NCBI GenBank assembly: GCA_011375175.1
Contig: DRME01000063.1
Span: forward strand, 12,182 to 76,181
DNA length: 64,000 bases
From: Deltaproteobacteria bacterium
GTDB lineage: Bacteria > Desulfobacterota > GWC2-55-46 > DRME01
Reading direction: 5' to 3'
Below, one piece after another: positions 14,495-46,535 of this stretch (its first letter is position 1; each line of letters opens with the position of its first letter). A program made the translations under genes and the position numbers. Under the pieces are notes generated by a model that saw only the letters and a program-made list of their open reading frames with translations, was not told the DNA's origin and made no database searches.

Positions 14495-14504
14495 GCGGGC
14501 GGGG

Positions 14505-26021: not shown

Positions 26022-26295
26022 CGGTATTTTCCTCGATATTAATGTTGTCGTCCCGTGCGGGGCCGCAGGCCCCGCCGTGACGGCGCCATGTGTGCATTAT
26101 AATATACAGTATGAGCCGGAAGCAGGGCAATACAAATCTCGACGGCGGCCATAGCGCTTGAAGGAGGTTCGGCGTAGTGGTAAGATCAGCGGAACAGACC
26201 GTTTCTTCCTGCAGTGTTCACGTCGAGGGCGCCGGACGGGCCGCCTCGGCCCTCACCGGCGGCTTCGAGCCGGCCCGCGACTCCGGGACCCCGTA

Positions 26296-27342: not shown

Positions 27343-27395
27343 GGGGCCGTCTCCCTCGTGCGGAAGGCTTCCCCGGCAACGGAGGGTTATGACCA

Positions 27396-28433: not shown

Positions 28434-29476
28434 TGTCAGCCGTGTGGGAGAAGGCCGCTTTCTTTCTGAAACTCCTTCGCCTCAGGGCCACCGGCGCCAG
28501 GGCGCCCCTCTTCGTCTTCTTCAACGTCACCAACAGGTGCAACGCCCGCTGCTCCTACTGCTTCGGCGCCTACTACGAACGTTACGCAAGCGAGCGCCGC
28601 AGGGAGCTCACGACGGGGCAGATACTCTCCGTCATAGACGGGCTCTCGGATATGGGCACGCGCCGCATAGGCATCACGGGCGGAGAGCCCCTTCTGAGAG
28701 AGGACATAGCCGAGATCATAGCCCGCATAAGGGAGCGGGGCATGAGCTGCGGGCTCAACACCAACGGCTTTCTCGTGCCCGCGAGGCTCGACGACATCAG
28801 GGGCGTGGACAACGTGACCATAAGCCTCGACGGCGACAGGGACGCCCACGACGCCAACAGGGGAAAGGGGAGCTTCGACAGGGTCATGGCCGCCGTGGAG
28901 GCCGTGAGGGCCGCCGCCATACCGCTCCACCTGAGCACGGTCGTGACCGCGCGCAACAGGGACTCGCTCGATTTCGTAATGGAGTTCGCCAGGCAAAGGG
29001 GCGTACCCGTCCAGGTGAGCCCCCTCTACGAACGCTTCTGGGGCGAGAAGGACGAGGGCTTCCCGGCAAAGCTCGATCAGGGGGAGCTGCGCGAGACCAT
29101 CGGGCGCGTCATGGAGTACAAGCGCCGGGGATACCCGGTCTTCTTCTCGCTCAGGACCTACGAGAAGATACTGGCCTGGCCCTACGGCGACCGCGACAGG
29201 GTGGTGGGCGAGGAGCCGGACTTTCCCCACGCCCGCTGCTACATGGGCCGCCTGCTCTGCACCATCGACGCCAGCGGCGACGTCTACCCCTGCGCCCAGC
29301 TCGAGGGCTTCAGGGTGAAGAACGCCGTGGAGGACGGCCTGCGCGATGCCTTCGACAACATAGCGGACCACGACTGCCGGGCATGCCTCTGGGCCTGCTA
29401 CAACGAGTACAACCTCCTCTTCGCCCTCGACCCCGCCGTCCTGTGGAACACGGTGAGGAACGCATTGACGCACTGA
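28433..29476 (+). CDS. Radical SAM/SPASM domain protein (paralog C)
   Basis: ATG overlaps the upstream stop (TGATG). It has CNARCSYC, GGEPLL and a C-terminal Cys cluster (CYMGRLLC…YPCAQ…HDCRACLWACY). Confidence 0.85.
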   Translation: MSAVWEKAAFFLKLLRLRATGARAPLFVFFNVTNRCNARCSYCFGAYYERYASERRRELTTGQILSVIDGLSDMGTRRIGITGGEPLLREDIAEIIARIRERGMSCGLNTNGFLVPARLDDIRGVDNVTISLDGDRDAHDANRGKGSFDRVMAAVEAVRAAAIPLHLSTVVTARNRDSLDFVMEFARQRGVPVQVSPLYERFWGEKDEGFPAKLDQGELRETIGRVMEYKRRGYPVFFSLRTYEKILAWPYGDRDRVVGEEPDFPHARCYMGRLLCTIDASGDVYPCAQLEGFRVKNAVEDGLRDAFDNIADHDCRACLWACYNEYNLLFALDPAVLWNTVRNALTH

Positions 29477-29482
29477 GGGGCC

Positions 29483-30517
29483 ATGGACAACGGTACGGAC
29501 ATATCGGTCGTAGTGCCCGTCTACAACGAGCGCGAGGTGCTGCCCCACCTCTACGAGCGGCTCGCCTCGGTGCTCGAGGGCCTGGGGATGAGCTACGAGA
29601 TAATCTTCGTCAACGACGCGAGCACCGACGACTCGCTCCATATCCTGCGGGGCCTTCACGAGCGCGACGGCCGCGTGAAGATACTCTCCTTTTCGCGCAA
29701 CTTCGGCCACCAGACGGCCGTCACCGCCGGGCTCAACTTCAGCCGCGGCCGCGCCGTCGTCGTCATGGACGGCGATCTCCAGGACCCGCCCGAGTGCATA
29801 CCGGCCTTTGTCGCCAGATGGAGGGAGGGCAACGAGGTCGTCTACGGCGTCAGGAGAAAGCGCAAGGAGAGCCTCATGAAGAGGGCGCTCTACAAGGTCT
29901 ACTACCGGGTGCTGCGCCTCCTCTCCAAGGTGGACATACCGCTCGACAGCGGGGACTTCTGCCTCATGGACCGCAAGGTGGTCGAGCTCCTGAACCACAT
30001 GCCCGAGCGCAACCGCTTCGTGCGGGGGCTGCGCCGCTGGGTGGGCTTCAGGCAGGCGGGCGTGCCCTACGAACGCGACGCCCGCTACGCCGGCGAGTCG
30101 AAGTACACCTTCTTCAAGCTCGTAAAGCTCGCGCTCGACGGCATCGTGAGCTTCTCGGAGCTGCCGCTCAAGGCCTCGGTGCTCATAGGCTTCGCCATAT
30201 CGATAATGACGGTCGTATACTCCTTCTATCTCATAGTCAACAGGATCGTCCACCCCGCAAACCAGATACCGGGCTGGACGTCCATCATCGTGGCCGTCAC
30301 CTTTCTCGGCGGCATAGAGCTCATGGTCATGGGTTTCCTCGGCGAGTACCTGCTGAGGATATACGACGAGGTCAAGGACCGTCCCCAGTACATACTCAAC
30401 GGGGTCATAGGATTCGAGGAGAAGGGCGATGCCGAGGGTGTCGGTGGTGATTCCGGCCTACAACGCGGAGAAGTACATAGAGAAGTGCCTGGCCTCTCTC
30501 AGGGCCCAGAGCTATGA
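29483..30517 (+). CDS. GT2 glycosyltransferase, polyprenyl-phosphate sugar synthase-like (ArnC/DPM1-like)
   Basis: ISVVVPVYNERE…IIFVNDASTDDS…VVMDGDLQDPPECIP with C-terminal TM helices. Its last ~30 aa overlap the next gene by 89 nt. Confidence 0.8.
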   Translation: MDNGTDISVVVPVYNEREVLPHLYERLASVLEGLGMSYEIIFVNDASTDDSLHILRGLHERDGRVKILSFSRNFGHQTAVTAGLNFSRGRAVVVMDGDLQDPPECIPAFVARWREGNEVVYGVRRKRKESLMKRALYKVYYRVLRLLSKVDIPLDSGDFCLMDRKVVELLNHMPERNRFVRGLRRWVGFRQAGVPYERDARYAGESKYTFFKLVKLALDGIVSFSELPLKASVLIGFAISIMTVVYSFYLIVNRIVHPANQIPGWTSIIVAVTFLGGIELMVMGFLGEYLLRIYDEVKDRPQYILNGVIGFEEKGDAEGVGGDSGLQRGEVHREVPGLSQGPEL

Positions 30518-31439
30518 CGACTACGAAGTGATAGTCGTCGACGACGGCTCCACGGACCGCACGGCCGAGCTGGCCGCCGCATACGCCCGTGTCGTGAAGG
30601 CGCCGCGAAACCTCGGCGAGGGGGGCGCCCGGAACCTCGGCGCCCGCGAGGCCGAGGGCGAGATACTGGCCTTCACCGACGCCGACGTGGTCGTGCCCGA
30701 GGACTGGCTCGAAAAGATCGTCGCCACCATGGACAAAGAAGGGGTCGAGTGCGTGGGAGGCGGCTACTGCGGCTCCATGGGCGACGGCTTCATCGAGCGC
30801 TTCGCCTTCCACGAGCTCGCCTACAGGCGAAAGGACCTCGCCGGAGAGGTCAACACCATAGTCTCCAACAACTTCGCCTGCCGCCGCGACGTCTTCTGGG
30901 AGTTCGGCGGCTTCCCGGAGCGCTACAAGGTCGAGGACCTGCGGCTCTCCTACCTCATAAGCAGGAAGTACAGGATCCTGTGGGACAGGACGAACGGCGT
31001 CTACCATCACTTCCGTCCCGACCTCTACGGCTACCTGCGCCAGATGTACTACTTCAGCAGGGACACGGTCTGGACCTACTACAGCTACCCGGAGCTCGTC
31101 TTCCACAGGACCCACCAGGGCAGGCTCATATACGTCGAGATAATGAGCGTGCTCGCCGCCCTGGCGGCCGCTCCCCTCTGGCCGGCGGCGCTGCTCTTTG
31201 CGCCCATGGCCGTGGGGGCCCTCAACTACGGGTTCCTCAGCCACCTCGCCCGAAACCGTCTGTCCGTGGCCCGGTCCATGGGCGTTATCATAGCGAGAGA
31301 CCTTGTCGTCTCCCTCGGCATCGTCACGGGCGCGGCGCTCTGCGCCGGCGACGCATGGTCGCGGCGCTTCGGCTCCGCCAGGGGATGCGCGGAAGCGGGG
31401 AGCGACACCGATGAAGAGAGAAAGGACTTCGTGAAGTGA
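30429..31439 (+). CDS. GT2 family glycosyltransferase
   Basis: VSVVIPAYNAEKYIEKCL…VIVVDDGSTDRT…FTDADVVVPEDWL (a DxD-type GT-A fold) with a hydrophobic C-terminal region. Confidence 0.8.
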   Translation: MPRVSVVIPAYNAEKYIEKCLASLRAQSYDDYEVIVVDDGSTDRTAELAAAYARVVKAPRNLGEGGARNLGAREAEGEILAFTDADVVVPEDWLEKIVATMDKEGVECVGGGYCGSMGDGFIERFAFHELAYRRKDLAGEVNTIVSNNFACRRDVFWEFGGFPERYKVEDLRLSYLISRKYRILWDRTNGVYHHFRPDLYGYLRQMYYFSRDTVWTYYSYPELVFHRTHQGRLIYVEIMSVLAALAAAPLWPAALLFAPMAVGALNYGFLSHLARNRLSVARSMGVIIARDLVVSLGIVTGAALCAGDAWSRRFGSARGCAEAGSDTDEERKDFVK

Positions 31440-31449
31440 GGAGACCGTT

Positions 31450-32967
31450 ATGAAGATACTTCTTGTAAACCCTCCGTGGTACAGGCTCCAGGGCGCCTCT
31501 CTGGTGCACTATCCGCCGGGTCCCTGCTTCGTGGCCGGGGCGCTCGAGAAGGCGGGCTACGAGCCGGTGGTCTGGAACGCCGACTTCGACCCGGCCGTCA
31601 GGTCCGTCATAGGGGGCACCAACGTGCTCGACACCGACGAGCTCACGCAAAAGCACAGCATCTACCAGAAGAACCTCAACGACCTCTCGGCGCCCGTGTG
31701 GCGCGAGGTGGCCTCCATGATCGAGCGCTTCGCACCCGACGTGCTCGGCGTCTCGGTCTACAGCGCAACATACAAGGCGGCCCTCAACGTGGCCCGCATA
31801 GCAAAGGAGGTGAACCCCGCCGTAACGACCGTCTTCGGAGGCATACACCCCACCATAGCCACCGAGGAGGTGGCCTCGCAGCGCGACGTGGACTTCGTCG
31901 TCTTCGGCGAGGGCGAGCGCACGGTGGTGGAGCTCGTGGGGGCCCTGGAGGCGAGAGACGGCGCTGGCCGCGACTTCTCCTCCATAAAGGGCATCGCCTT
32001 CAAGGACGGGGACGGCAACGTGGTCAGGACCGAGCGGCGCGAGTACATAGAGGACCTCGACGCCGAGGTCTACCCGGCCCGCCACCTCATCCACGACGTG
32101 GAGAGCTACCCGCCAACGGCCTTCCAGGGCATATACGGCTCGCGGGGCTGTCCCTTCAAGTGCATATTCTGCGGCTCCTTCAACCTCTGGGGCTACAGCG
32201 TGAGGACCAGGAGCGCCGAGACCCTGGTGGCCGAGATCGAGGAGACACACCGCCGCTTCGGCACCCGCTACTTCTACCTCTGCGACGACATATTCTTCAT
32301 AAACCGCGAGCGGGCGCGCCGCTTCTGCGAGCTGCTCATCGAAAAGGACCTGGGCGTCATGTGGTCGGCCCAGACGAGGGCCGAGATGGTGACCGACGAA
32401 CTCCTTGCGCTCATGAAGAAGGCCGGCGGCCAGCACGTGGCCATTGGGGTCGAGACCGGCGACGAGAGGATAAGAAAGCTCATAAAGAAGGGCAACACGC
32501 TCGAGCAGATGCGCCGCGCCGCAAGGCTCGTCCACAAGCACGGCCTGACGCTCGTCGGCTTCTTCATGTTCGGCTTCCCCTGGGAGTCGCGCGAAGAGAT
32601 AAGGCGCACCGTCGAGTTCATGAAGGAGATAAACCCGACAATCGCCTTCCCCTACATAGTCACGCCCGCCCCGGGCACGGAGTTATCGCAGATATCGCAC
32701 GAGATGGGCCTTGTGGGACCCGACCGGGAGCTCGAGAACTTCTACCACGAGAGCCCGGAGATGTGCCTGAGCGTCAACATCCCCGAGGAGGAGAGAAAGG
32801 GCATAATCGACGAAACGCTCAAGGTCTTCGCCGAGCACAACAAGAAGCGCTTCAGGCTCGACGTGCTGAAGAGGCCGCGCTTCTACTACACGCTCTTCCA
32901 CGACTTCGGGTTCTTCAGAAACCCCATGCAGTTCGTCCAGGTCCTGAGGGACGTGGTCGCGGGCTGA
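31450..32967 (+). CDS. B12-binding (class B) radical SAM protein
   Basis: The N-terminal cobalamin-binding-like Rossmann region (MKILLVNPPW…, VLGVSVYSATY…VFGGIHPT) is followed by an rSAM core CPFKCIFC. Length is 505 aa. Confidence 0.85.
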   Translation: MKILLVNPPWYRLQGASLVHYPPGPCFVAGALEKAGYEPVVWNADFDPAVRSVIGGTNVLDTDELTQKHSIYQKNLNDLSAPVWREVASMIERFAPDVLGVSVYSATYKAALNVARIAKEVNPAVTTVFGGIHPTIATEEVASQRDVDFVVFGEGERTVVELVGALEARDGAGRDFSSIKGIAFKDGDGNVVRTERREYIEDLDAEVYPARHLIHDVESYPPTAFQGIYGSRGCPFKCIFCGSFNLWGYSVRTRSAETLVAEIEETHRRFGTRYFYLCDDIFFINRERARRFCELLIEKDLGVMWSAQTRAEMVTDELLALMKKAGGQHVAIGVETGDERIRKLIKKGNTLEQMRRAARLVHKHGLTLVGFFMFGFPWESREEIRRTVEFMKEINPTIAFPYIVTPAPGTELSQISHEMGLVGPDRELENFYHESPEMCLSVNIPEEERKGIIDETLKVFAEHNKKRFRLDVLKRPRFYYTLFHDFGFFRNPMQFVQVLRDVVAG

Positions 32968-32982: not shown

Positions 32983-35412
32983 ATGGAGCAGCACAAAGCA
33001 GCGCAGCGCCGCAGCGCCGCCCCTGTGCTCGTCGGCGCGGCGGCGCTCGCCGCCTTCGCGCTCCTCAGCCGCGGGCTCATCACGGGCGACGAGATATTCA
33101 CCCACGACTCGCTCCTCTCCTACGGCCCCTTCCACTACGCCCTCGACGCCATGAGCGAGGGAATAGTGCCGCTCTGGGACCCCTACAGCATAACGGGGCT
33201 GCCCTTCTATCCCAACCTCAACTTCTCGTCCCTCATAGACCCGCTCATACTGCCCTTCATCCCCCTTGCGCGGCTTTCCGGTCCCGACTTCGTGCTCTGG
33301 TACGTCCACTTCTGGCTCGTAAAGCTCCTCGTCTTCGCCCTGGGCGCCTATCTTCTCTTCTCCCGTGTGGCCGGGAGCAGGGCCGCCGGGGCCGCCGGAG
33401 CGGGCGTTCTCCTTCTGGCCGTCGCGCCCGTCTCCTTCAGGCAGCTCGGCGTCATATGCGCGGTCTACCTGACGCCCATGGTCATGTATCTTCTGCTGCG
33501 GCTCTTCGACCCTGGCACGAGACGGCAGACGAGGCTTCGCCTCGCGCTCTTCGTCCTTACGGCAGGCGTCTCCCTGAACCTCTTCATCCCCGTCTACTTC
33601 CTCTTCAACATCGTCTTCTACGCCGCCGCCCTTGTGGTCGCCGGGGCCGTGAAGTGGAGGGAGGGGCTCGCGAGGTTCCGGGGCGAAGACGGCCCCGGCC
33701 TCCTATTCCTGCTGTTCGTGCTCGCCGCGGCCGTCATGATCTGTGGTCCGCTCCTCGCCCTCTACATCGACTCATCGGGCGGCGAGATATTCCCCCACAT
33801 ACGGATACTCCAGAAGAACGGCTGGGTCTACAAGCAGATGATGGCCTCGGAACTGGCCGGCGACGTGCTCTCCCACAAGTTCACCAGGTCCCTGGGCGTG
33901 TACAGCTCGCTGGGCAACCTCGTAAACCTCGTCTATCCCGACATGTTCCGCTCCTACTTCGCAAGGGCCGACTACTTCAGGATGAACGACCTGACGAGCG
34001 AGGTCTTCCAGTACATGGGCATCGTGCCCTTCGTGCTGGCCCTGGCGGCCCTTGTGCGCTCGCGCTCGCCCCATCGCCTCGCGGCCCTTCTCATGGTCGT
34101 GATCACAGGGGTGAACATGATAAGCCTCGAGGGCGTGCACGACAGGGCGCCCAACGTGGTGCAGAGGCTCTTTTCCGCCGTATTTCCGCCCCTTGAGATG
34201 ATAGACGTGAAGGAGCAGTTCGGGGGGTTCTTCCTCCTCTACCTCTCCATGCTCTTCTCGCTCGGCGTAAGGCCGCTCTTCGAGGGCCGGGACTTGGGGG
34301 CGGCGGCGCGCTCGCTCCTGCGTCCCGTGCTCGTCGCCTCGGCGGCCGTGCTCGCCTTCAAGCTCGCCGTCTCGTGGGCCTGCTTCGGGCGCCTGCTCTT
34401 CGTCTCGGGCCTCGATCTCCTCTGCCTCGCCGTGCTCGCCGCCTTCTGCGCCCTCCTCGTCCTCTTTGCGGGGACCGGCAAGGAGAGACGGCGGCCTCTG
34501 TTCACGGTCCTTCTCACGGCCTTCCTCTTCATCGACCTAACGGCCGCGGGCGCCGCCATGAAGCGTTACGTGGTCCAGCCCAACACCCTCTCCCCCGTCC
34601 TGAAAAAGCACGCCCGCAAGGGCTCTTTCGGCGAAGACTTCGAGCTCTACCGCATCCCCTTCATGGACGTGAGCCTCGTCTACGCCGAGGCGGTCTTCAA
34701 GCGGAAGAGCTCCATCGCCCCCGGCGGCGTCCACAGGCAGATGTTCACCACCAAGCGCTACTACGACCTCCTCACAAACGTCCCTCTCGAAAAACACTTC
34801 GCCCTCACCGGCATCGTCTATCCCCTGTTGCGGTTCGTCCCCGCCGGTGACGCCGAGCTCGTCCCGGGCAGACGGGAGGCCTTCTCGGCCGTAAGGGAGG
34901 CGACCATCGAGGAACTGGGCCGCAAGGTCTTCATAGAGAAGGACGGCGCCGCCGGGGGGCCTGCGGCGGACTTCAAGAGCCTGGACGAGTTTCCCGACGC
35001 CCCCTGGCTCATGGCGGTCAACGTAAAGCGCGCCTACCGCCGTTTCCTCGAAAGGGAGAAGGCCCTTGTGGAAGGGGCGAGGAGACGGGCCGGCGACTAT
35101 ATCGAGACCGACCGCTTCGGGGTGCGGCTCCTGGAGTTCACGCCCAACACGGCGGTCTTCGGCGTCCGAAGCCGCGTCGACGGCTATCTCTACTACAACG
35201 ACGGCTGGAGCCGGTACTGGAGGGCGACGGTCGACGGCCGCGAGGCGGAGCTTCTCGTGGCGGACTACAATTCCAAGGCCGTCGCGCTGTCGGCCGGCGA
35301 GCACACCGTAAGGCTCGTCTACGACCCCCTGCACTACAGGCTCGGTCTCTTCGCCTACCTCGCGGCAATCGCCGCGCTGCTGGGGGTCGTGCTCCTCAAC
35401 ACACGCCGTTGA
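32983..35412 (+). CDS. Large polytopic membrane protein (YfhO-like/GT-C-like)
   Basis: 809 aa with ≥12 predicted TM helices and a C-terminal soluble domain. It lies downstream of two GT2 polyprenyl-P-sugar synthase-like genes. Confidence 0.45.
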   Translation: MEQHKAAQRRSAAPVLVGAAALAAFALLSRGLITGDEIFTHDSLLSYGPFHYALDAMSEGIVPLWDPYSITGLPFYPNLNFSSLIDPLILPFIPLARLSGPDFVLWYVHFWLVKLLVFALGAYLLFSRVAGSRAAGAAGAGVLLLAVAPVSFRQLGVICAVYLTPMVMYLLLRLFDPGTRRQTRLRLALFVLTAGVSLNLFIPVYFLFNIVFYAAALVVAGAVKWREGLARFRGEDGPGLLFLLFVLAAAVMICGPLLALYIDSSGGEIFPHIRILQKNGWVYKQMMASELAGDVLSHKFTRSLGVYSSLGNLVNLVYPDMFRSYFARADYFRMNDLTSEVFQYMGIVPFVLALAALVRSRSPHRLAALLMVVITGVNMISLEGVHDRAPNVVQRLFSAVFPPLEMIDVKEQFGGFFLLYLSMLFSLGVRPLFEGRDLGAAARSLLRPVLVASAAVLAFKLAVSWACFGRLLFVSGLDLLCLAVLAAFCALLVLFAGTGKERRRPLFTVLLTAFLFIDLTAAGAAMKRYVVQPNTLSPVLKKHARKGSFGEDFELYRIPFMDVSLVYAEAVFKRKSSIAPGGVHRQMFTTKRYYDLLTNVPLEKHFALTGIVYPLLRFVPAGDAELVPGRREAFSAVREATIEELGRKVFIEKDGAAGGPAADFKSLDEFPDAPWLMAVNVKRAYRRFLEREKALVEGARRRAGDYIETDRFGVRLLEFTPNTAVFGVRSRVDGYLYYNDGWSRYWRATVDGREAELLVADYNSKAVALSAGEHTVRLVYDPLHYRLGLFAYLAAIAALLGVVLLNTRR

Positions 35413-35747
35413 AGGTCCTGCGCCTCCTCTCCGGGACCGGCTTGAGAAAAAGACGCGGCGGGGTGTTTTTTGTCTTGAGGCCGGCGGCACCCCGTGTTAA
35501 GGTCGCAGAGATGACCTTTCCCGCCTCTGCCTTGCCTCCCAAGTGCTTGATTTTAATAGCAGTTCCATTTCCGTTACACTTTCCGGCGCCACGGCGCCAG
35601 CCTCTCCCCTGAAAGACGAGGGACGAAAAAAAGCTGCCTGTGACCGGCGTCACATACCGTCTTACGCCCCTTTGCTATCATGGAGACAGGATAAAGAAGA
35701 AGAGCTTGCAGTGCATACACTTACAAATATGAGAGAACGGGGGCTTG

Positions 35748-37675
35748 AGATGAATAGGGGAACGGCAAAGACAAGGACGGCGGCGGCGGTGCTCATCTTC
35801 GCACTGTTTTTCCCTGTGGCGTCGTCGTATGGGGCCGATGCTACACTCACGTGGAACCCTCCGACCACGAACACCGACGGCTCTCCGCTCACTGATCTCG
35901 ACGGTTACTACGTCTACTACGGCACCACGTCCGGCAGCTACGACCAGAAGGTCGACGTGGGCAACATAACGGAGTACAAGGTCACGGGACTCACCTCCGG
36001 CACCCGCTACTACTTCGCCGTGACGGCCTACAACACGGCCGGCAGGGAGAGCTCCTATTCGGCGGAGAAGAGCAAGGTCGTCTTCGACGCCGACACCACG
36101 GCTCCCTCCATATCGGGCGTATACGTATCCAACATCGGCCAGACGAGCGCCGAGATAAACTGGACGACCGACGAGGACGCCGATTCGCTTGTCCGTTACG
36201 GCGTCACCGCCTCCTACGGTTCCAACGTCTTCGACTCGTCCATGGGCAAGGCCCACACCATGGTCATAAGCGGGCTCAGCCCCTCGACGACCTACAACTT
36301 CCAGGTGCTCAGCACCGACGCCTCGGGCAACCAGGCCTCTTCGGGCAACTACACGTTCACCACCGCCGACGTGCCCGACACGACGGCCCCCGCCATCTCG
36401 GACATCAGGTTCACCGACATCACCTCTTCGTCGGTGACCGTCACGTGGAAGACCGACGAGCCCTCCACCTCGCAGGTCGAGTACGGCCTCGACACTTCCT
36501 ACGCAAGCGCGAGCGCCCTGGACTCGACGCTCACCACGTCACACCGGGTCGTGATCACCGGGCTGTCGGCCTACACGACCTACCACGCGCGCGTCATCTC
36601 GGCCGACGCCGCCGGCAACAGCGCGGTTTCGAGCGATCACTACTTCATAACCTCCAACACGGCGCCTTCCATAACGTCGCTTGACGCCAGCCCCTCGTCG
36701 GGCTATGCGCCGCTGTATGTGAGCTTCACGGCGGCGGCCTCCGACGCCGACGGCTTCGTGGCGAGCTACGAGTGGGACTTCGACGGCGACGGCGCCTACG
36801 ACGACGACACGGGCACGGTGGCCGCGGCCTCCCACACCTACACGTCGCCCGGCACCTACACGGCCGTCCTCAAGGTGACCGACAACGGCGGCGCCTCGAC
36901 GACGGCCCAGGTTACGGTGACGGTCAAGGACGTGGTCAACACCCTGCCCGTAATATCGTCCTTCACGGCCGATCCCCTCTCGGGCACGGCCCCCCTCGAT
37001 GTGACCTTCAGCGTGTCGGCCTCCGACGCCGACGGCTCCATAGCGGGCTACGAGTGGGACTTCGACGGCAACGGCACCTACGAGGCCTCGACCTCCACCG
37101 TGCCGGTCTCCCACACCTACACGGCCCCGGGGACCTACAAGGCTGTGGTGAGGGTCACCGACGACGACGGCGCCTCGGTGACGGCCTCGGTGACCATAGA
37201 GGTGGCCGACGCGTCGTCCAAGGGCGCCGACACGACGGGGTCGACGACGACGACCACCACCTCGGCGGACAACACCACCACCTCGTCGCTCGCCGCATCG
37301 ACGACGGCCCAGGGGCCGGTGACCTCCGACGGCGGCAACTGCTTCATCGCCACGGCCGCCTTCGGCAGCTACCTGGACCCCCATGTGAACGTCCTCAGGC
37401 AGTTCAGGGACGAGTACCTGCTGACCAACGCCGCGGGCAGGGCGTTCGTGGACTTCTACTACGCCGTATCTCCTCCGCTCGCGGCCTTCATAGCCGACCA
37501 CGACTGGCTGCGGGCCGCTGTCAGGGTCGCTCTCACCCCCCTCATCTTCGCCGTGATGTACCCCGCGGCGGCGTTCATCGCGATGGCCGTCTTTGCGGCC
37601 GCCGCGGCCGTGAGCGTCTCGCTCTACCGTGACCACCGCCGCCGCCGCGCTCTCAGGAAAAAGTACTCCTTCTGA
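35748..37675 (+). CDS. Secreted multidomain surface protein: signal peptide, 3× FN3-like, 2× PKD, a Ser/Thr-rich linker, and a Cys-initiated C-terminal anchor module (TM helix plus basic tail)
   Basis: Signal peptide is [29 protein letters not shown]. There are three ~95-aa repeats with TAPxIS…Y…TTY (FN3-like) and two PKD repeats (YEWDFDGDG…HTY…GTY…V.VTD). The linker is [19 protein letters not shown]. The C-terminus is [28 protein letters not shown]…[44 protein letters not shown]. Confidence 0.8.
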
Positions 37676-38127
37676 GCCACGTCCTCTCATCCTCGCCGCC
37701 GCGTCCCGGCCTGCCCGGTCCACGGGGGGCCGGGCGCGGCCACTCCCTCCCTCCCCGCCGCCGCAGCGGCGGCCCCCGCGGACCCAAAGATTGACTTGCT
37801 AAGCGGCCGTCGCTGTGGTATAAATTCGTATTCAGCGCCTGCGGTCTTCATCCACTGTGAAGGGCCGCGCGAGGGCGGGAAAGGGGCGGACCCGTGCGGC
37901 TCGCGGCCGCCAGCGCCCCCTGCGGGCAGAGGCGAAGCCCTTCCCCGACCCATCTCTCTCCCCGGCGGGCCGGAAACGGCCGCCCGCCGGAAATCCCCGT
38001 GCGCAGCGCCGGAGAGCGGGTGATGAAGAGTCGGCCCCCTGCCGGCGCCGACGGTGTCCTGCGACCTCCCCACAAGAGGGGCGCGCGCAGACCCACCGAC
38101 ATTCTCCAAGCTCTGACGGAGTACAGA

Positions 38128-38918
38128 TGACAAAGAGCAGGCTCCTGAGGCTTCTCATCGTCCTCACAACGGTCTCTTCCCTTGCGGCCGGCTGCTCGGG
38201 CCGCGGCCGGGTGAGGGAAGGGCAGATACCCTTTGTGGTGGCCGACGACGACAGGACCATAGCCGACTACAGGGTGAAGGAAGATGCGTACAGGCTCGTG
38301 CCCGGCGACGTGGTGCAGGTGCTCGTCTACAACCAGAAGGAGCTGTCCATGAAGATACGGATACCTCCTTCCGGCGTCATCACCTACCCCTTCATAGGAG
38401 ACATAGAGGCCCGGGGGCTCACCGTCCAGGAGCTGAGGGACCGCATAGCCGAGGGACTGGCCTCGGGTTACGTGAAGAGACCCCAGGTGGCCGTCAACCT
38501 CGATACCGTAAAGGGCCGCAAGGTGTACATCCTCGGGGAGGTGACGACCCCCAAGGTCCTGCCCCTTACCGACGAGATGGACGTCGTTGAGGCCCTGTCG
38601 CTGGCGGGAGGGTTCACTCCGTCGGCCGACCGCGAAAACGTCTTCATAATCAGGAAGATCGCCGACGGCAGGAGGGTCATGGATGTGGTCAACATTCAGG
38701 CCTTCCTCAAGGAGCTCGATTTCTCGCAGAACGTGATGCTCCAGGGCGGCGACGTCGTCTACGTATCGAGGTCGCTCATCGGTGACGTGGCGGTCTTCAT
38801 GCGCCACCTCTACACCATAACCATGCCCGTCATGCCCAACCTGATGGAAGGTATCATCCTTACTCCAAGGGTTTACGATACGCTCCAGGGCAAGAGAGAG
38901 CGCGTCTTTATCGACTGA
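38128..38918 (+). CDS. wza: Periplasmic polysaccharide export lipoprotein (Wza/KpsD, Poly_export + SLBB)
   Basis: Lipobox LAAGC. It has LVPGDVVQVLVYNQKELS…VITYPFIGDIEARGLTVQELRDRIAEGL…YILGEV (polysaccharide export motif plus a soluble-ligand-binding beta-grasp). Confidence 0.8.
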
Positions 38919-38956
38919 CGCCGCGAGGGGCCGCAGCGGCGGGGGATCTTGAATAG

Positions 38957-41137
38957 ATGGAGCTGAGGGAATACCTTCGAACCATACTGGCCAGGGCGCG
39001 GCTCATCCTGCTCACAACCCTGGTGACCGTGGTGGTCGCCACGGCGGGCGGCTTCATGAAGACGCCGCGCTACGAGGCGACGACGACGGTCCTCATAAAG
39101 TCGGCGCTCACCCAGTCGCAGGTCAACATCCCCGGCATCCAGCTCTCGGCCACCCAGGACATCCAGAGAAAGGGCGAGACCTTCGGCAGGATACTGAAGA
39201 GCCGTGTCATAGCCGAGAAGACGGTCGATATCCTCGGGCTCGACAGGAAGGTCGCCGCCGGTTCCAAGACCGACCCCCGGCTCGCCGCCGTAAAGACCAT
39301 CCAGAACTCCATCTCGGCCCGGCTGCTCTCCAAGACCTCCATAATGGAGATATCGGTGCTCTATCCCGACCGCGAGCTCGCCGCCGACATAGCCAACACG
39401 GCGGCCAGGGTCTTCGTCGACCACATAGGCGAGATGAACTCGGCCGAGGCGAGGGCGGCCAAGGAGTTCATCATGGAGCGCGTCAGTGTGGCCGAGGCCG
39501 ACCTCAAGGCGGCCCAGGACAGGCTCCGCGAGTTCATCGCCGTCGAGGGCGCCATCTATCCCGAGAGCAAGGCCAACCTCGTGCTCGCCGAGTTCGTGAG
39601 CTTCGAGACGGCGCTCAAGAACACGCAGACCGAGATCGAGCAGGCCAGGAAGAAGATCGAGGAGATCCGCAGGCGGCTGAGCGAGGCCGACAGGACGCTC
39701 AAGACGTCGACCACCACCATAATCAACCCCGTGATCCACAACCTCAAGACAAAGCTCGTGGACGTGGAGGTGCGCAAGGCCAACCTCGCAAGCGAGCTCG
39801 GCCCCAGGCACCCCCGCATACTGGCGCTCACCGAAGAGGCGGCGAGCATACGGCGCGCCATAGACGGCGAGGTCAAGCGCATAGTGGAGAACGAGGTGAC
39901 GTCGATCAACCCCGTCTACCAGCAGCTCATGCAGGAACTGGTGACAAAGGAGATCGACTACGGCGTGTTCGTGGAGAAAGAGCGGGCCATACGCGACATC
40001 ATCTCGACCTTCCCCGTGGAGCTGCGCCTCTCGGCCGAGAAGCAGATAGAGTGGGACACGCTGACCAACTCCGTCAAGTTCGCCCAGAAGAACCTCGACT
40101 CCCTCAAAAGCCAGCTCGAGACGGCCCGCATAAGCGAGGCCAGGAAGATAAGCGAGATAAAGGTCATAGACCCGGCCATCCCGCCCACTTCCCCCAAGGG
40201 CATCCCGCCGCTCGGCTATACGCTCATAGGCCTTGTCGTGGGGCTGCTGGGCGGCGCCTCGCTCGCCTTCCTCATCGAGTACCTCGACGACTCCATAAAG
40301 ACCATAGAGGCCGTCGAGGAAGACCTCCAGCTTCCGGTCTACGGCGTCATCCCCCGGATCGGCTCTTCCAGGAAGAGGAGACGCCGGAGAAAGAAGGAGG
40401 AGGGCGAGGCCGTGGAGGTGACGATGCTCGAGGAGAGGCTCATCACCCACCTCGAGCCCAAGAGTCCCATAGCCGAGGCCTACCGCTCCTTCAGGACCAA
40501 CATCCAGTTCACCGATATCGATGAGCGCACCAAGATACTGCTCTTCACGAGCTCGGTGAAGGGCGAGGGCAAGACGACGACGTCGGCGAACCTTGCCATA
40601 ACCATGGCCCAGCTCGGCAACCGGACCCTCCTCGTCGACGCCGACATGAGAAACCCCATGGTCCACGCCGTCTTCGGGCTCGAGCGCGAGCCCGGCCTCT
40701 CCAACATAATAGGCGGGTTCGGCGATCTCAAGAGCGTCGTCAAGCCCTCCGGCATACGCAACCTCGACATCATAACCTCCGGCCCCATTCCGCCCAACCC
40801 CTCGGAGCTGCTGAACTCGAAGAGGCTCGACATGATGATCGAGCGCCTCAGGGACCGTTACGACTTCATCATATTCGACACGCCGCCCATCATCGCCGTC
40901 ACCGACGCGGCCGTGCTCTGCTCCAAGGTTCACGGCGCGTTCCTGGTCATACGGGGCGGGCAGACGAGCCGGCGGCTCTGTGAAAGGGCAAAGGGGCTTC
41001 TGGAGAAGGTCAACGCAAACCTGCTCGGCGCCGTCATCAACAACGTAAGGATGTCGAGCCGTTACGGATATGAATACTATTACCAGTACTACTATGGCGA
41101 GCAGAAGGGATCGCGGAAAAAGAGACGCCGCAAGTAG
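38957..41137 (+). CDS. wzc: Polysaccharide co-polymerase/BY-kinase (Wzc/ExoP/EpsB-like)
   Basis: It has an N-terminal TM, a long coiled-coil periplasmic Wzz-like region and a second TM. The C-terminal P-loop ATPase has SSVKGEGKTTTSANLA (Walker A), VDADMRNP and IIFDTPP, plus a Tyr-rich tail YGYEYYYQYYYG. Confidence 0.85.
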   Translation: MELREYLRTILARARLILLTTLVTVVVATAGGFMKTPRYEATTTVLIKSALTQSQVNIPGIQLSATQDIQRKGETFGRILKSRVIAEKTVDILGLDRKVAAGSKTDPRLAAVKTIQNSISARLLSKTSIMEISVLYPDRELAADIANTAARVFVDHIGEMNSAEARAAKEFIMERVSVAEADLKAAQDRLREFIAVEGAIYPESKANLVLAEFVSFETALKNTQTEIEQARKKIEEIRRRLSEADRTLKTSTTTIINPVIHNLKTKLVDVEVRKANLASELGPRHPRILALTEEAASIRRAIDGEVKRIVENEVTSINPVYQQLMQELVTKEIDYGVFVEKERAIRDIISTFPVELRLSAEKQIEWDTLTNSVKFAQKNLDSLKSQLETARISEARKISEIKVIDPAIPPTSPKGIPPLGYTLIGLVVGLLGGASLAFLIEYLDDSIKTIEAVEEDLQLPVYGVIPRIGSSRKRRRRRKKEEGEAVEVTMLEERLITHLEPKSPIAEAYRSFRTNIQFTDIDERTKILLFTSSVKGEGKTTTSANLAITMAQLGNRTLLVDADMRNPMVHAVFGLEREPGLSNIIGGFGDLKSVVKPSGIRNLDIITSGPIPPNPSELLNSKRLDMMIERLRDRYDFIIFDTPPIIAVTDAAVLCSKVHGAFLVIRGGQTSRRLCERAKGLLEKVNANLLGAVINNVRMSSRYGYEYYYQYYYGEQKGSRKKRRRK

Positions 41138-41976: not shown

Positions 41977-43629
41977 ATGATGGGATGGGTCCCGGCCGGG
42001 GGACGGCGGCTGACGCAGGTCCTCATGGCTCTTCTGGCGGCGGGCGGGCTCTTCGTCTCTTCCTGCACCACCGCCGACGTGGGTGACGAGGGCGAGGGCG
42101 GCCGCCTCGCCGCCGGTTCGGCGGCGGAGATGGAGCGCCGCGAGCGCAGGGCCCTCGGCCTCGACGACGGCCGCCGGGTCGCGGACGAGGGTGAGGCGGA
42201 CCGCGGGGGGGCAGGCGGGCGGAAGAGCCGCACCGCCGCTCCCCGGAGGCCGGCGCCGCCCTTCAGGGGGGTGGAGACCTCGGGCGAGTATCGGGGCCAC
42301 AGGTGGTTCATCGACAAGGACCACATGCTCTGGTGGGACGGCCGCCCCTACGTCCCCTTCGGAGTCAACCTCTTCGCCAGGACGAGGCGCGAGGTCGACA
42401 TCGCCATGGAGCTGGGGCTCAGGGAGTTCGCCATCTGGATAGGCGACTTCCCGGCCGCAGGCTACGAGCGAAGGGCCGCCGCCATGCTGCGCACCGTCGA
42501 CGACCTGACAAGCTACATAACCGAGAGGGGCGGCACCTACGTCGTCATCCTCGAGCAGGTCTTCACCAGCGACTATACGGGCAGCCGCGGCGACGAGATG
42601 ACCTTCGTCACCATGAGCGAACTCACCGGCAGGCCCCGCTACTTCAGGAAAAAGGCCTTCGGCGGAGGCCCCATACCCCCGCTCCACAAGGAGAATATCC
42701 GCCGCATGACCTTCGACTACTTCAGGATGTTCGGCAAGGCCGTGGCAAAGGACGGGCTCAGGGGCCTGTGTTACCTCAACGAGCTTTCCACAAACATAGG
42801 GCTCGGCGGCGAGTGCCTCGAGTCCTCGGCCAGGGCCGGCGAGATGAAGGACGAGGGTTATCCCGACCTGCGCGACGAGCCGGTCCTGCTCGAAGCCTAC
42901 CGCCGCTGGCTGGCCGGGCGCTTCGGCTCCGTCGGGGAGCTCAACGCGCGGCTCGGCACGGACTACGGCGGCTTCGACGAGGTGGAGTGGGTGACGCCCG
43001 CCGACATCACCTATTCGCGCCATCCCTGCCGCAGCCTCCGGGTGCGCGACGACATACAGAACCGCTTCTGGGTCGACTTCTGGGCCGGCCAGTACGTCTC
43101 CTACGCCCGCAAGGCGAGGGAGCTCATCGGCGATGTGCCCTTCTTCTCGAAGGCCCTGGACTACGAGTTCCACCGCTACTCGCTGGAAGAGGCCATAGTG
43201 ACGGCCGGCACCGACGGCATCGGCCACGACATCTACAGGGTCGTCAACACCACGGAGATCGCCGAGCGCGAGGAACTCGGCCTCCCGGCCTCTCTCGACC
43301 TCGACTTCGAGGCCATGCTCGCCGCGGCGCAGAACGCCTCGGGCCGCACAAAGCTCTTCTGGGTGCCCGAGCACGGCTCGGGCGATGCCGAGAGGATGCT
43401 CGTCTTCGGCAGCCGCAGGGAGCTGGAGGAGTTTCTACTCGACATGGTGGAACGGGGGGCCAAGGGCTTTTTCACATACCAGCCCGTGGACCCGGCCACG
43501 GTTCGCGGCGGGGAGCTCAAGGAGCTCGTGGCGAGGTCCCTTCGCTGGCACGCCGAACTCCGCGGGTCGGTGATCGGCGAGGCGACGAGGCGCTCGGAGA
43601 AGGCGGGGGCGGCAGGTCGTGAGAAGTGA
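41977..43629 (+). CDS. Hypothetical secreted lipoprotein, possible glycan-processing enzyme
   Basis: ATG preceded by GGGAGG. Signal plus lipobox is LLAAGGLFVSSC. The ~550-aa protein has no motif I can assign. The track ORF's N-terminal extension overlaps the GT2 gene out of frame. Confidence 0.55.
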   Translation: MMGWVPAGGRRLTQVLMALLAAGGLFVSSCTTADVGDEGEGGRLAAGSAAEMERRERRALGLDDGRRVADEGEADRGGAGGRKSRTAAPRRPAPPFRGVETSGEYRGHRWFIDKDHMLWWDGRPYVPFGVNLFARTRREVDIAMELGLREFAIWIGDFPAAGYERRAAAMLRTVDDLTSYITERGGTYVVILEQVFTSDYTGSRGDEMTFVTMSELTGRPRYFRKKAFGGGPIPPLHKENIRRMTFDYFRMFGKAVAKDGLRGLCYLNELSTNIGLGGECLESSARAGEMKDEGYPDLRDEPVLLEAYRRWLAGRFGSVGELNARLGTDYGGFDEVEWVTPADITYSRHPCRSLRVRDDIQNRFWVDFWAGQYVSYARKARELIGDVPFFSKALDYEFHRYSLEEAIVTAGTDGIGHDIYRVVNTTEIAEREELGLPASLDLDFEAMLAAAQNASGRTKLFWVPEHGSGDAERMLVFGSRRELEEFLLDMVERGAKGFFTYQPVDPATVRGGELKELVARSLRWHAELRGSVIGEATRRSEKAGAAGREK

Positions 43630-44998
43630 CCTCCTCCACGACGGCGGGCTCGTGAGAAGCCTTGCGCTCACCTCGGCGGCCGGGGTGGTCCTCGGGGGGA
43701 TCGTGCTGGCGGCCGGCCCGCTTGCGCCTTTCGTGGTCATCGGCGGCGCGCTGGCGGCGGCCTCGTTCCTCGTGCCGCAGCTCTGGCTCTTCATCACCGT
43801 CGTCTTCTCGCTCGGCGTGCCGGGGCTGCCGCTCAAGAAACCGCTCTTCGCCGTGCTGCTCGTCGTCGCCGCCCCGGCGCTCGTCTCGCGCATCAGGCCC
43901 TACACGGGCGAAGGCCGCGTCGTCTATGCCGCCGGCTTCCTCGCGGCCCTTCTCGTTTCGTTCGTGGCCGGCACGCACGGAAGAGACGTGGTGGTCACGG
44001 CCGAGTCCGTGGCCCCGGTGGTGCTCTTCTTCGTGGTCCTCACCTGCATCGACTCGCTCGAGCGCGTCTACAGGCTCGTGGGCGCCGTAATCTTAAGCGG
44101 TGTCCTCCTCACTCTGTTCCGCTTGACCAACTCGCCGCTGCTGCTCGGCTGGGCCGTGGACCACGTGGCCCTCGGCGCCGTCCTCCTCAAGAGCTTCATC
44201 CTGAGCTCCTTTCTGCTGCTGAGCGGCGCCACCGGGCGCAGGGAGGCGCTCTTTGCCGCGAGCTTCTTCATATGCGTGGGCCTCATGCTGGCGCTCAGCA
44301 AGACCATGTTCATCACCCTGGCCATCCTCCTCGCCGTGGGACTCTTTTTCACGGAGCTGCGCCGCAAGTTCCTCTACTTCATCGTCATACTCTCCTTCGT
44401 CATGCTCGTGCTCCCTCTTTTCATAAGCCCCAGGTTCTTCCTCATCCCCCTCGACGTGGCGCCCACGGGACACCCGGTGCTCTACATGCTCACCGACGCC
44501 ATGTCGAATATAGAGAATCCCGAGGGCACGACCCTTGGCGGCAGGCTCACGGACCTCAAGCGCGGCTTGAACTACCTGGAGGAGCATCCAGGCACGCTCC
44601 TTACCGGTGTGGGCGTAGGCATGGCGACCAAGGCCGTCTACTACTCGCACCTGGCCATAGGGGAGACGGTCTCCCACGGTTTCTTCACGAGCGGCTACCT
44701 GACCATGCTCATCGAGATCGGGACGATGGGGCTTGTCTTCTTTCTGCTGCTGATAGTGACGTCGCTTCGCGATCTCCTGAAACTCATGGCCCGTTACAGG
44801 CGCACGGGACGCACAAGGGAGCTCTATCTCTGCCTCGCCCTCTTCATGATCGTCGTGGGCGTACTCATCGAGGCCCTCGTGGGACACGCGGTCATAGATT
44901 ACATCCTGTGGATATCCTTCGCCCTTACGTCCATACTCAAGCGGCTTGACGAGGGGGGTGGAGAGGGCGGCCCCGAGGCCGCCGGCCGTCATGGATAG
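43619..44998 (+). CDS. O-antigen ligase/polymerase family membrane protein (Wzy-like)
   Basis: 459 aa with ~10–12 TM helices and a periplasmic loop (…HPVLYMLTDAMSNIENPEGTTLGGRLTDLKRGLNYLEEHPGTLLTGVGVG…), as in the Wzy_C/O-antigen ligase family. Confidence 0.65.
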   Translation: MRSDLLHDGGLVRSLALTSAAGVVLGGIVLAAGPLAPFVVIGGALAAASFLVPQLWLFITVVFSLGVPGLPLKKPLFAVLLVVAAPALVSRIRPYTGEGRVVYAAGFLAALLVSFVAGTHGRDVVVTAESVAPVVLFFVVLTCIDSLERVYRLVGAVILSGVLLTLFRLTNSPLLLGWAVDHVALGAVLLKSFILSSFLLLSGATGRREALFAASFFICVGLMLALSKTMFITLAILLAVGLFFTELRRKFLYFIVILSFVMLVLPLFISPRFFLIPLDVAPTGHPVLYMLTDAMSNIENPEGTTLGGRLTDLKRGLNYLEEHPGTLLTGVGVGMATKAVYYSHLAIGETVSHGFFTSGYLTMLIEIGTMGLVFFLLLIVTSLRDLLKLMARYRRTGRTRELYLCLALFMIVVGVLIEALVGHAVIDYILWISFALTSILKRLDEGGGEGGPEAAGRHG

Positions 44999-46535
44999 CC
45001 TGCGCGTCGACGAAAGGGAGCCGCCCCTGGCCGTCGCGGTTGTCGCGGCGGCCTCTATGCTCTGCGCGGTCCTCATCCTCCGGGACCTGCCGGCAAGGAG
45101 CCTCTGGACCGACGAGTTCACGAGCATCGATGTCGCCTCGCTTCCGCTGCGCGAGATCGCGGCCTGGGCGGCCGGCGACGTCCATCCCCCGCTCTATTAC
45201 GTCCTCCTCCACTTCTGGAGGGAGCTCGCAGGAGCGGGCGAGACTGCGGCCCGCATATTCTCGGTGCTGCCGGCCGCGGCCACGGTCCCCCTCGTCTACC
45301 TCTCGGCGCGGCATGTGGCGGGCTGGAGGGTGGGGCTTCTGACCGCCGTGATGCTGGCCGTCTCGCCGCTTCTCGTGCTGCGCGGCGGCATGGTGCGCTG
45401 GTACACACTGGCCCTCGCTCTCTCGTGGGCGTCCATACTCTTTTTCCTGCGGGCCGTCGAGGGGGGAGGGCTGCGCCGCTGGGCGCTCTACGCGGCGGCC
45501 ACGACGCTGCTCATATACACCCACTACCTGCCGGGGAGCATCGTCATCGGCCAGGGCCTCTATCTCCTCATCGAGCACCGCCGGGACCGGCGTCTTGCGC
45601 GAAACTTCTTCCTCGCCCTCTCGGCCGTGGCGCTTTTGTACCTGCCGCAGCTCGGCGTGCTGGCAAGTCAGCTTCTCTACGCGCCGCACCACGGCTCGCC
45701 GGCGCCCATGGCCTACGGCCTCAAGGGCGCCGTGGTGAAGGCGGGCTACACGCTCTACGCCTTCGCCCTCGGCGAGACCGTCCTGCCCTGGGACCTGAAG
45801 GTCACGGCCGCCGCTGCCGCCGCCTTCGCCGCCGCCGCGCTCGCCGGTCTCGTCGGGGCCTGGAGAGTGCGCGGGGTCCCGGCCTTCGTCCTCTGCTTTC
45901 TCATCGTGCCTCTCGTCTTCCTCATACTCCTTACGGCCACGGTCTTTCCGTCCGAATCGTTCCACCTCTTTCCGGGTCTTCTGCTCTTTGTCCTCCCAAC
46001 CTTCTACCTGACGGCGGCCATCGGCCTCACGGTCCTTCCGGCAAGGCTCTCGGCGGTCTCTTTCGCCGTCATCGTGGCGGCCTGGTGCTACTCGCTGGGC
46101 AACCTCTATGCGAAGCGGGGCTACATAAATCCGAATTATGTGATACCATGGAGAGAGGCGGCCGCCGTGCTCGAAGAGCGGGTGAGGCCCGGCGAGCTCG
46201 TCATAGCCACGGACAGGTCGCTCTATTATTACCGCCGGGGCGTGGACATGGTGCTTCTCGACGAGACGAAACGGAAGGGCGCGGTGGAGGAGACGGTGGA
46301 GAGGAGCGCTCCGCCCGCGCTGTGGCTCCAGGTGCGAGATCGGGGCAACCCGGAGGATACGCGCCACATCGAGACCTTTCGCCGCAGCCTCTCCGGCCGC
46401 TACAGACTCGCCTCGGCCCTGGGCTTCGTGGCCGAGGACCCGATGACGGTGAGCTTCAAGGAGCGCCTTCTCCGGCGTCCCGTACCGAAGTACAAACTCA
46501 TGATCTACCGCTATGTAAAAAAAGAAGAAGGATGA
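44989..46535 (+). CDS. GT-C family glycosyltransferase (ArnT/PMT-like, GT39/GT83-like)
   Basis: Polytopic. It has LWTDEFTS (a DE motif in the first extracytoplasmic loop) and HPPLYYVLLHFW. It has ~11 TM helices and a soluble C-terminal domain. Confidence 0.6.

Follow-up and report, generated by a model that had tools for sequence, protein, structure and literature searches.

In the MYXO-CTERM and CGP-CTERM signals, which occur on varied secreted passengers, an invariant cysteine lies a few residues from a transmembrane (TM) helix, and the entire signal takes up about 30-35 amino acids (aa). Genes of the PEP-CTERM/exosortase (EpsH) system stand as single-gene units preceded by long intergenic stretches (Haft et al. 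2006, PMC1569441). In streptococci, glycosyltransferases of the YfhO family with a GT-C fold act with GtrB/PgfS to glycosylate Ser/Thr-rich, disordered extracytoplasmic regions of membrane proteins, and the substrates include adhesins encoded in the same cluster (PMC12041528). The gene described here can be compared to each of these systems. It is located in a stretch of 64,000 nucleotides (nt) from a Deltaproteobacteria bacterium (assembly GCA_011375175.1, contig DRME01000063.1, positions 12,182 to 76,181), referred to below as the window, and it encodes a 641-aa protein that combines three fibronectin type III (FN3) domains, two PKD domains, a Thr/Ser-rich linker and a C-terminal module that, judged by its match to an existing model, is the already catalogued CFI-box-CTERM and not a new module. 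The reading favored here, to which a probability of roughly 0.6 is assigned, is that the product is an envelope protein of type I, anchored by its C-terminus, in which five immunoglobulin (Ig)-like domains are carried on a flexible stalk, and that it is functionally tied to exopolysaccharide (EPS) production.

The C-terminal module comprises the last 111 residues and starts at Cys531 (nt 37,340). When the C-terminus was searched against sorting-signal models, the result was NCBIfam NF041770 (CFI_box_CTERM), matched over the whole model (positions 1-69 of 69). The full protein scores 109.8 bits and the C-terminal 111 aa score 116.8 bits, the cutoff being 40. AlphaFold2 (AF2), run with the family alignment, predicts an entirely helical module (helices at module residues 2-7, 13-25, 31-52, 55-73 and 75-109) with a predicted local distance difference test (pLDDT) score of 84.6. 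There is one hydrophobic peak (Kyte-Doolittle 1.9-2.2), at approximately module residues 64-98, and it is followed by a basic tail. The initial annotation, made from the DNA alone, had proposed a conserved, Cys-initiated module of the anchoring or sorting type, with an ending like that of the PEP-CTERM class but without the PEP motif. Both proposals agree with these results: the module is C-terminal on thousands of unrelated passengers, the TM helix and basic tail are present, no PEP precedes the helix, and the PEP-CTERM models (TIGR02595 / PF07589) gave no match at E<=1 in NCBIfam or Pfam. In the PDB, the module has no meaningful relative, either by structure or by sequence.

The protein shares with PEP-CTERM proteins a signal peptide, a low-complexity region, a C-terminal TM helix with a basic cluster, and a setting in an EPS locus. 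It differs in that there is no PEP at the membrane edge, and in that a 70-residue helical domain and an invariant Cys precede the TM helix; most CFI-box genes, moreover, are not linked to exosortases. The likeness to MYXO-CTERM and CGP-CTERM lies in the invariant Cys within a C-terminal module, the TM helix with basic residues, and the variety of passengers. Here, however, the Cys is about 75 residues upstream of the TM helix, at the start of what is predicted to be a folded helical domain.

On the same model match, the window protein is an ordinary member of a large CFI-box-CTERM family. It has the N-terminal export signal, the CFIATAA start after a low-complexity linker, the LRxFRDxxLL...YYxxSPP core, and the TM helix with basic tail that are shared by the family, but its linker is Thr-rich where that of the family is usually poly-Gly, and the residue before the Cys is Asn rather than Gly. 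Searching with the 111-aa module returned 204 proteins. Several of them already bear the name 'CFI-box-CTERM domain-containing protein', and these come from metagenome-assembled genomes of Syntrophales, Nitrospirota, Thermodesulfobacteriota, Gammaproteobacteria, Dehalococcoidia and Bacillota. A family profile built from 108 members and run against 1.84 billion cluster representatives (50%-identity clusters) retrieved 30,587 representatives at E<=1e-3 and 24,214 at E<=1e-10, spread across Nitrospirota, Thermodesulfobacteriota, Gammaproteobacteria, Chloroflexota, Bacillota and the candidate phyla radiation (CPR). Protein lengths in this search range from 130 to more than 2,000 aa, and in all but about six of the 150 top-scoring hits listed the match is at the extreme C-terminus. 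The passengers are unrelated to one another, and include fn3, Flg_new_2, DUF11, YD repeats, NHL, Big_2 and He_PIG. A literature search found no paper mentioning CFI-box-CTERM, and a family of approximately 30,000 such clusters opens a question in bacterial surface-protein biology.

The layout of these proteins is stereotyped, and was seen in 119 of 120 module hits and in 140 of 141 representatives from the profile search. A variable passenger and a Gly-rich linker are followed by CFIATAA[YF]G[ST], LRxFRDxxLLTN, FVxxYYxxSPP, LTPxV..YP, a TM helix and an Arg/Lys cluster, with about 65 aa between CFIATAA[YF]G and the TM helix. The median distance from the Cys, which is the first residue of the CFI box, to the C-terminus is 101 aa; the residue before it is Gly in 101 of 140 representatives. 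In the 12-residue stretch that follows the TM helix, the median is four Arg/Lys and no Asp/Glu. Within the module C, I, A, T, L, G, Y and P are invariant, and F, R and D are kept in 90% of sequences or more. The window protein has no Cys besides Cys531, and in 55 of 86 orthologues the mature part likewise has no Cys other than its counterpart, which rules out a conserved intramolecular disulfide. Two other roles for this residue were considered and rejected. Lipidation at a lipobox ([LVI][ASTVI][GAS]C directly after the h-region of a signal peptide) does not fit a Cys that, on inspection, follows DGGN at residue 531 with no adjoining hydrophobic segment upstream, and Hint/intein-like autoprocessing at G|C needs the beta-strand Hint fold, whereas the AF2 module is all-helical.

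A genome may contain several CFI-box paralogues (as at L017/L033 and L067/L072), and tandem copies also occur. Tandem genes are found at P0121-P0124, where in some cases a single protein bearing two CFI modules has been annotated. In four Nitrospirota-like sequences (P0144, P0183, P0186 and P0210), the CFI-box protein continues in frame past its RRRK tail into a second signal-peptide-like segment and a domain of about 250 aa that ends in ...RYRLFIGSRINF and resembles an outer-membrane beta-barrel (weak DUF3187 match). The same beta-barrel-like gene is located directly downstream of CFI-box genes at L006 (1328-2146) and L056 (10337-11140).

A full-length search found more than 80 orthologues, each of about 600-620 aa and about 50% identical over 94-100% of the query. 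All keep the fn3x3/PKDx2/CFI-box order, and all those examined have signal peptides. Thirteen orthologue loci outside the window were compared, and one, in which the gene is at a contig end, is uninformative, so that 12 remain; five of the 80 loci from a metagenome scan keyed on the generic PKD motif EWDFDGD proved to be true orthologues. In other bacteria, this FN3-PKD-CFI family belongs to the standard gene set of exosortase/PrsK-PrsR exopolysaccharide loci. An exosortase gene is present within 5 kb of the orthologue in nine of the 12 informative loci, usually convergent and immediately downstream. The models TIGR02602 (exosortase), TIGR02916 and TIGR02915 were matched above cutoff at these loci, with 525 bits for PrsK (cutoff 300), 650 bits for PrsR (cutoff 503) and 121-147 bits for the exosortases (cutoff 105.55). 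Because the exosortases exceed the TIGR02602 cutoff and yet reach the cutoff of no named subfamily, XrtA and XrtC included (the best XrtC scores are 160-186 bits against 300), they appear to form an unclassified exosortase clade.

An exosortase is present at only one of 77 generic CFI-box genome loci (the orthologue loci L021 and L029 having been excluded), and the link is therefore specific to the FN3-PKD orthologue family rather than a general property of the CFI-box domain. That one locus, L026, has two tandem CFI-box copies with beta-helix-like passengers (6094-10312), 2.3 kb from the same type of exosortase. All-against-all clustering of the open reading frames (ORFs) of 79 CFI-box genome loci found no recurrent neighbor beyond generic two-component regulators, and a comparison of three individual CFI-box contexts found nothing shared. 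The orthologue loci also encode ordinary PEP-CTERM proteins, and they carry a radical-SAM-SPASM gene and an FrhB-like gene as well. A sigma-54 site might be expected upstream of the gene, since PrsR might control it, but a good site was found only at L084 (10 of 12 matches, 94 nt upstream), and none in the window or at the other loci. No description of the trio formed by prsK/prsR, the FN3-PKD-CFI gene and an unclassified exosortase was found in the literature search. This conserved trio is a more interesting by-product than the gene itself, and the linkage offers a lead on the role of the clade and on the coupling of protein and polysaccharide in flocs or biofilms.

The window locus differs from those of the orthologues, which sit between prsK/prsR and the exosortase gene, in that it contains neither. 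No exosortase, PrsK/R/T or PEP-CTERM protein was found in the 64-kb window, nor in approximately 2.4 kb to its left and 8.5 kb to its right, where housekeeping genes are located. The check for a cognate exosortase that the initial annotation had proposed thus proved fruitful, in that such a gene is found near most orthologues compared. Among the window ORFs there is no PEP-CTERM-like ORF and no second CFI-box ORF. What surrounds the gene instead is a glycan island of about 46 kb, with thyX at its left edge and ffh-trmD at its right. The island encodes an ABC exporter, GT4 and GT2 enzymes, a priming transferase, four radical-SAM proteins, a GtrB-like GT2 enzyme and an 809-aa membrane protein, then the target protein, Wza, Wzc, a Wzy_C protein, a PMT_2 protein and an SGNH/AlgX-like protein.

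In the favored reading, the protein would be exported by Sec and would span the membrane once, with an N-out/C-in topology. The CFI-box-CTERM would hold it in the cytoplasmic membrane by means of a juxtamembrane helical domain of about 70 residues, the TM helix and an Arg/Lys stop-transfer tail, and this anchor may be permanent. The FN3 and PKD beta-sandwich domains would extend into the periplasm or onto the cell surface via the flexible Thr/Ser-rich stalk. There, the protein may bind or organize polysaccharide or matrix, with the FN3 and PKD domains as spacers or carbohydrate-contact modules. In favor of this are the position of the gene between a GT-C gene and wza/wzc in a glycan island, the single hydrophobic peak with its positive-inside tail in a stereotyped family layout, and the exosortase context, mostly with PrsK/PrsR, of nine of the 12 informative orthologue loci. 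Several points weigh against it. One orthologue (L087) is located amid housekeeping genes, without an EPS context, and the literature search found no experiment on any CFI-box protein. Large adhesin-like passengers held on the inner membrane are unusual in diderms, which argues for further processing. Finally, the 70-aa domain is more strongly conserved than a passive anchor would require, a hint that it may take part in recognition or chemistry.

The features of the gene, its neighbors and the orthologue loci are collected in Table 1. The longest plus-strand ORF at the gene in the ORF listing of the window is 35543..37675. The ORF and its end had been assigned correctly, but the start given in the initial annotation, 35,748, is 2 nt early and out of frame with the ATG at 35,750. 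A public gene call made on this contig from a hydrothermal-vent metagenome (ENA ERZ940665) yields an identical 641-aa product, and the GC content at third codon positions (0.86-0.91) is like that of other window genes. A cleavable signal peptide, five Ig-like domains and a poly-Thr/Ser linker had also been read from the sequence, and these hold up well. The signal peptide call is based on inspection and orthologue alignment only; in the alignment, all orthologues examined have an n/h/c region that stops just before (G)DATLSW. All five Ig-like domains score above the Pfam gathering threshold (fn3, three stretches, 88.5 bits against a cutoff of 25; PKD_4, 91.2 bits, and PKD, 66.2 bits, two stretches each), and the linker contains 14 Thr and 8 Ser in 43 residues (51%). 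No sigma-70 or terminator consensus was matched near the gene, and Rfam and tRNA scans of the window returned nothing.

Table 1. Features of the gene, its neighbors in the window, and the orthologue loci (L numbers). Positions are in nt of the window, except for those preceded by an L number, which refer to that locus.
Feature	Position or locus	Strand	Basis or remark
Complete coding sequence, FN3x3-PKDx2-linker-CFI-box-CTERM	35750..37675	+	641 aa plus stop; public gene call identical; P0262 at 100% identity
Sec-type signal peptide (predicted), residues 1-28, then ADATL	35750..35833	+	Inspection and orthologue alignment
Three FN3 domains, ~residues 29-113, 114-209, 210-303	35834..36658	+	Pfam fn3; collinear in orthologues
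Two PKD domains, ~residues 304-395 and 396-487	36659..37210	+	Pfam PKD_4/PKD; orthologue alignment
Thr/Ser-rich low-complexity linker, residues 488-530	37211..37339	+	Composition count
CFI-box-CTERM domain proper, residues 531-599	37340..37546	+	NF041770, model positions 1-69 of 69
Conserved ...YP junction and single predicted TM helix, ~residues 605-626	37547..37627	+	Kyte-Doolittle; AF2 helix
Predicted cytoplasmic basic tail, 15 residues	37628..37672	+	Sequence
GtrB/ArnC-like polyprenyl-phosphate sugar synthase, GT2 with two C-terminal TM helices	29483..30517	+	PDB 5EKP GtrB, E 2e-89, full length
809-aa polytopic GT-C-fold glycosyltransferase (YfhO/ArnT-like; predicted)	32983..35412	+	Immediately upstream, 337-nt gap
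Wza-like (Poly_export and SLBB) and Wzc-like (Wzz and P-loop kinase) EPS export genes	38127..41137	+	Immediately downstream
Wzy_C-family membrane protein and PMT_2 (GT-C) protein	43619..46535	+	
Orthologue with exosortase within 5 kb, mostly with divergent prsK-prsR pair upstream	L084, L085, L086, L088, L089, L021, L095, L096, L098		
Exosortase genes	L084 4789-5754; L085 11841-12716; L086 11861-12739; L088 11888-12805; L089 12691-13587		TIGR02602
Orthologue with PrsK/R/T-like genes only	L029		
Orthologue with PrsT-like protein and shared 761-aa protein only	L097		
Orthologue among housekeeping genes	L087		
Orthologue at contig end	L094		Uninformative

A further proposal, which is compatible with a membrane anchor, is that the linker is O-glycosylated in the periplasm by one or more GT-C enzymes of the locus, with an undecaprenyl-phosphate (Und-P) sugar supplied by the GtrB-like GT2 enzyme, so that the island would make a glycoprotein as well as a polysaccharide. 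GT-C enzymes do adjoin the gene, as the initial annotation had noted. The upstream neighbor has 12-13 TM helices, a soluble domain of about 260 aa and a final TM helix; its Pfam YfhO and DUF6541 matches are under threshold, and the GT-C fold is taken from a predicted model of low confidence (pLDDT 55.6). The PMT_2 gene is 7.3 kb downstream, in the same region as the Wzy_C gene. The GtrB-like enzyme, a clear homologue of the polyprenyl-phosphate glucosyltransferase GtrB and of ArnC, is encoded 2.5 kb further upstream than the 809-aa protein, by the first of two adjacent GT2 genes (29483-31439), each encoding two C-terminal TM helices. Together with the two GT-C proteins (32983-35412 and 44946-46535), the two GT2 enzymes suggest two periplasmic decoration systems dependent on Und-P sugars. 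Because the upstream neighbor is GT-C-like and a GT2 enzyme is a GtrB homologue, a set for Und-P-sugar-dependent periplasmic glycosylation is predicted to be encoded beside a membrane protein with a predicted extracytoplasmic Thr/Ser-rich linker.

The streptococcal GtrB/PgtC2 and Pgf systems provide a precedent, in that both they and this locus pair a membrane protein bearing a Ser/Thr-rich linker with a GT-C enzyme and an Und-P-sugar synthase (PMC12041528). They differ from the present case in that the host here is a diderm, the YfhO membership is sub-threshold, and the arrangement is not conserved in orthologues. The window linker is the longest and most Thr-rich among 90 CFI-box-bearing homologues, and the window protein is the only CFI-box protein examined that is located beside a GT-C gene. 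The association is thus seen at one locus only, as neither GT-C protein has a homologue near any of the 13 orthologue loci or the 79 CFI-box loci. In orthologues the linker is short, with a median of 16 aa, and rich in Gly/Ser, so neither the GT-C neighborhood nor the Thr-rich linker is kept as the initial annotation's glycoprotein model would have led one to expect. GtrB and GT-C sets are, in addition, more commonly found acting on glycopolymers (O-antigen, teichoic acids, lipid A), and the island is of the polysaccharide type. The intergenic gap of 337 nt means that the GT-C gene and the target are not evidently co-translated, and there is no promoter or terminator consensus in the region. 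Because the GT-C pairing and the Thr-rich linker are absent in relatives, glycosylation of the window protein is plausible only as a lineage-specific feature, and on balance it is a tentative proposal that is rather doubtful. If it were confirmed, the pairing of GtrB, GT-C and a Thr-rich linker would extend the O-glycosylation of disordered regions from streptococci to a diderm.

The main alternative to the favored reading, and a clearly less likely one, is that CFI-box-CTERM is a true sorting or processing signal, from which a membrane enzyme removes the TM anchor, freeing the passenger or re-attaching it to lipid, EPS or outer layers. The enzyme could be the adjacent exosortase at orthologue loci, or another encoded elsewhere, and the invariant Cys could be the chemical handle. 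The gene is a single-gene unit with large flanking intergenic DNA, like the PEP-CTERM genes of Haft et al. (PMC1569441). The TM helix and basic tail on many unrelated passengers are likewise reminiscent of known -CTERM signals, several paralogues and tandem copies can occur in one genome, and the conservation of the module goes far beyond the needs of an anchor. Cys531 is a lone Cys and so not part of a structural disulfide. The adjacent, typically convergent exosortase of the nine orthologue loci is a further point in favor, and as it matches no named subfamily model its substrate class is open. However, the ordinary PEP-CTERM proteins at the same loci can explain its presence, and the module itself has no PEP or other known exosortase motif and matches no PEP-CTERM model. 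The other 76 of the 77 generic CFI-box loci lack an exosortase and any other recurrent neighbor, and no exosortase was found in the window or in the approximately 2.4 kb and 8.5 kb flanking it. The family also extends to Bacillota, Dehalococcoidia and CPR, lineages from which no exosortases are known. The distance between Cys and TM helix is a further difference from MYXO-CTERM or CGP-CTERM.

A more elaborate version combines these elements, and is correspondingly unlikely. It may be that CFI-box is a new class of processing signal in which the Cys, usually right after a Gly run, is the site of a covalent reaction (cleavage, lipidation or transfer to polysaccharide), that the orthologue family is the dedicated partner or substrate of the unclassified exosortase clade found beside it in most genomes, and that a Thr-rich stalk, gained in the window lineage, is O-glycosylated by the adjacent YfhO/ArnT-like GT-C enzyme.

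The location of the gene directly upstream of wza and wzc could also point to a structural accessory of EPS export, a periplasmic strut that is anchored in the inner membrane and would bridge Wzc/Wza or serve as their scaffold, rather than a protein of the surface or matrix; from the sizes of the domains, five Ig-like domains and a linker could in principle span the periplasm. This is very unlikely, as none of the 13 orthologue loci places the gene beside wza/wzc, and no strut-type component is known in Wzx/Wzy systems. Least probable of all is the S-layer protein or glycoprotein that the initial annotation had entertained, for which the generic resemblance to repetitive exported proteins with Ig-like domains and an S/T-rich region is the only support, and against which stand the absence of SLH or any other S-layer domain in Pfam and NCBIfam, a length (641 aa) that is small for an S-layer protein, and orthologue contexts that are EPS/exosortase loci.

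The window contains several further genes of note. Two island proteins, of 668 aa (23988-25994, minus strand) and 550 aa (41977-43629, plus strand), have no significant Pfam or NCBIfam match; the latter shows a weak GH42-like match in addition to a single hydrophobic segment, which is N-terminal. Two tandem paralogues of about 350 aa (13445-15557) have weak Glyco_hydro_99/WbsX-like matches at their C-termini and no NCBIfam match. Amid the glycosyltransferases are three tandem radical-SAM genes (26158-29476), one with a weak SPASM match, and a B12-binding radical-SAM gene (31450-32967). Finally, a 1365-aa ORF (7989-12086) joins an AMP-dependent (PaaK/DVU_1553-like) ligase region to a radical-SAM-like region, an unusual fusion in the island, and is followed by a DVU_1556-like methyltransferase.

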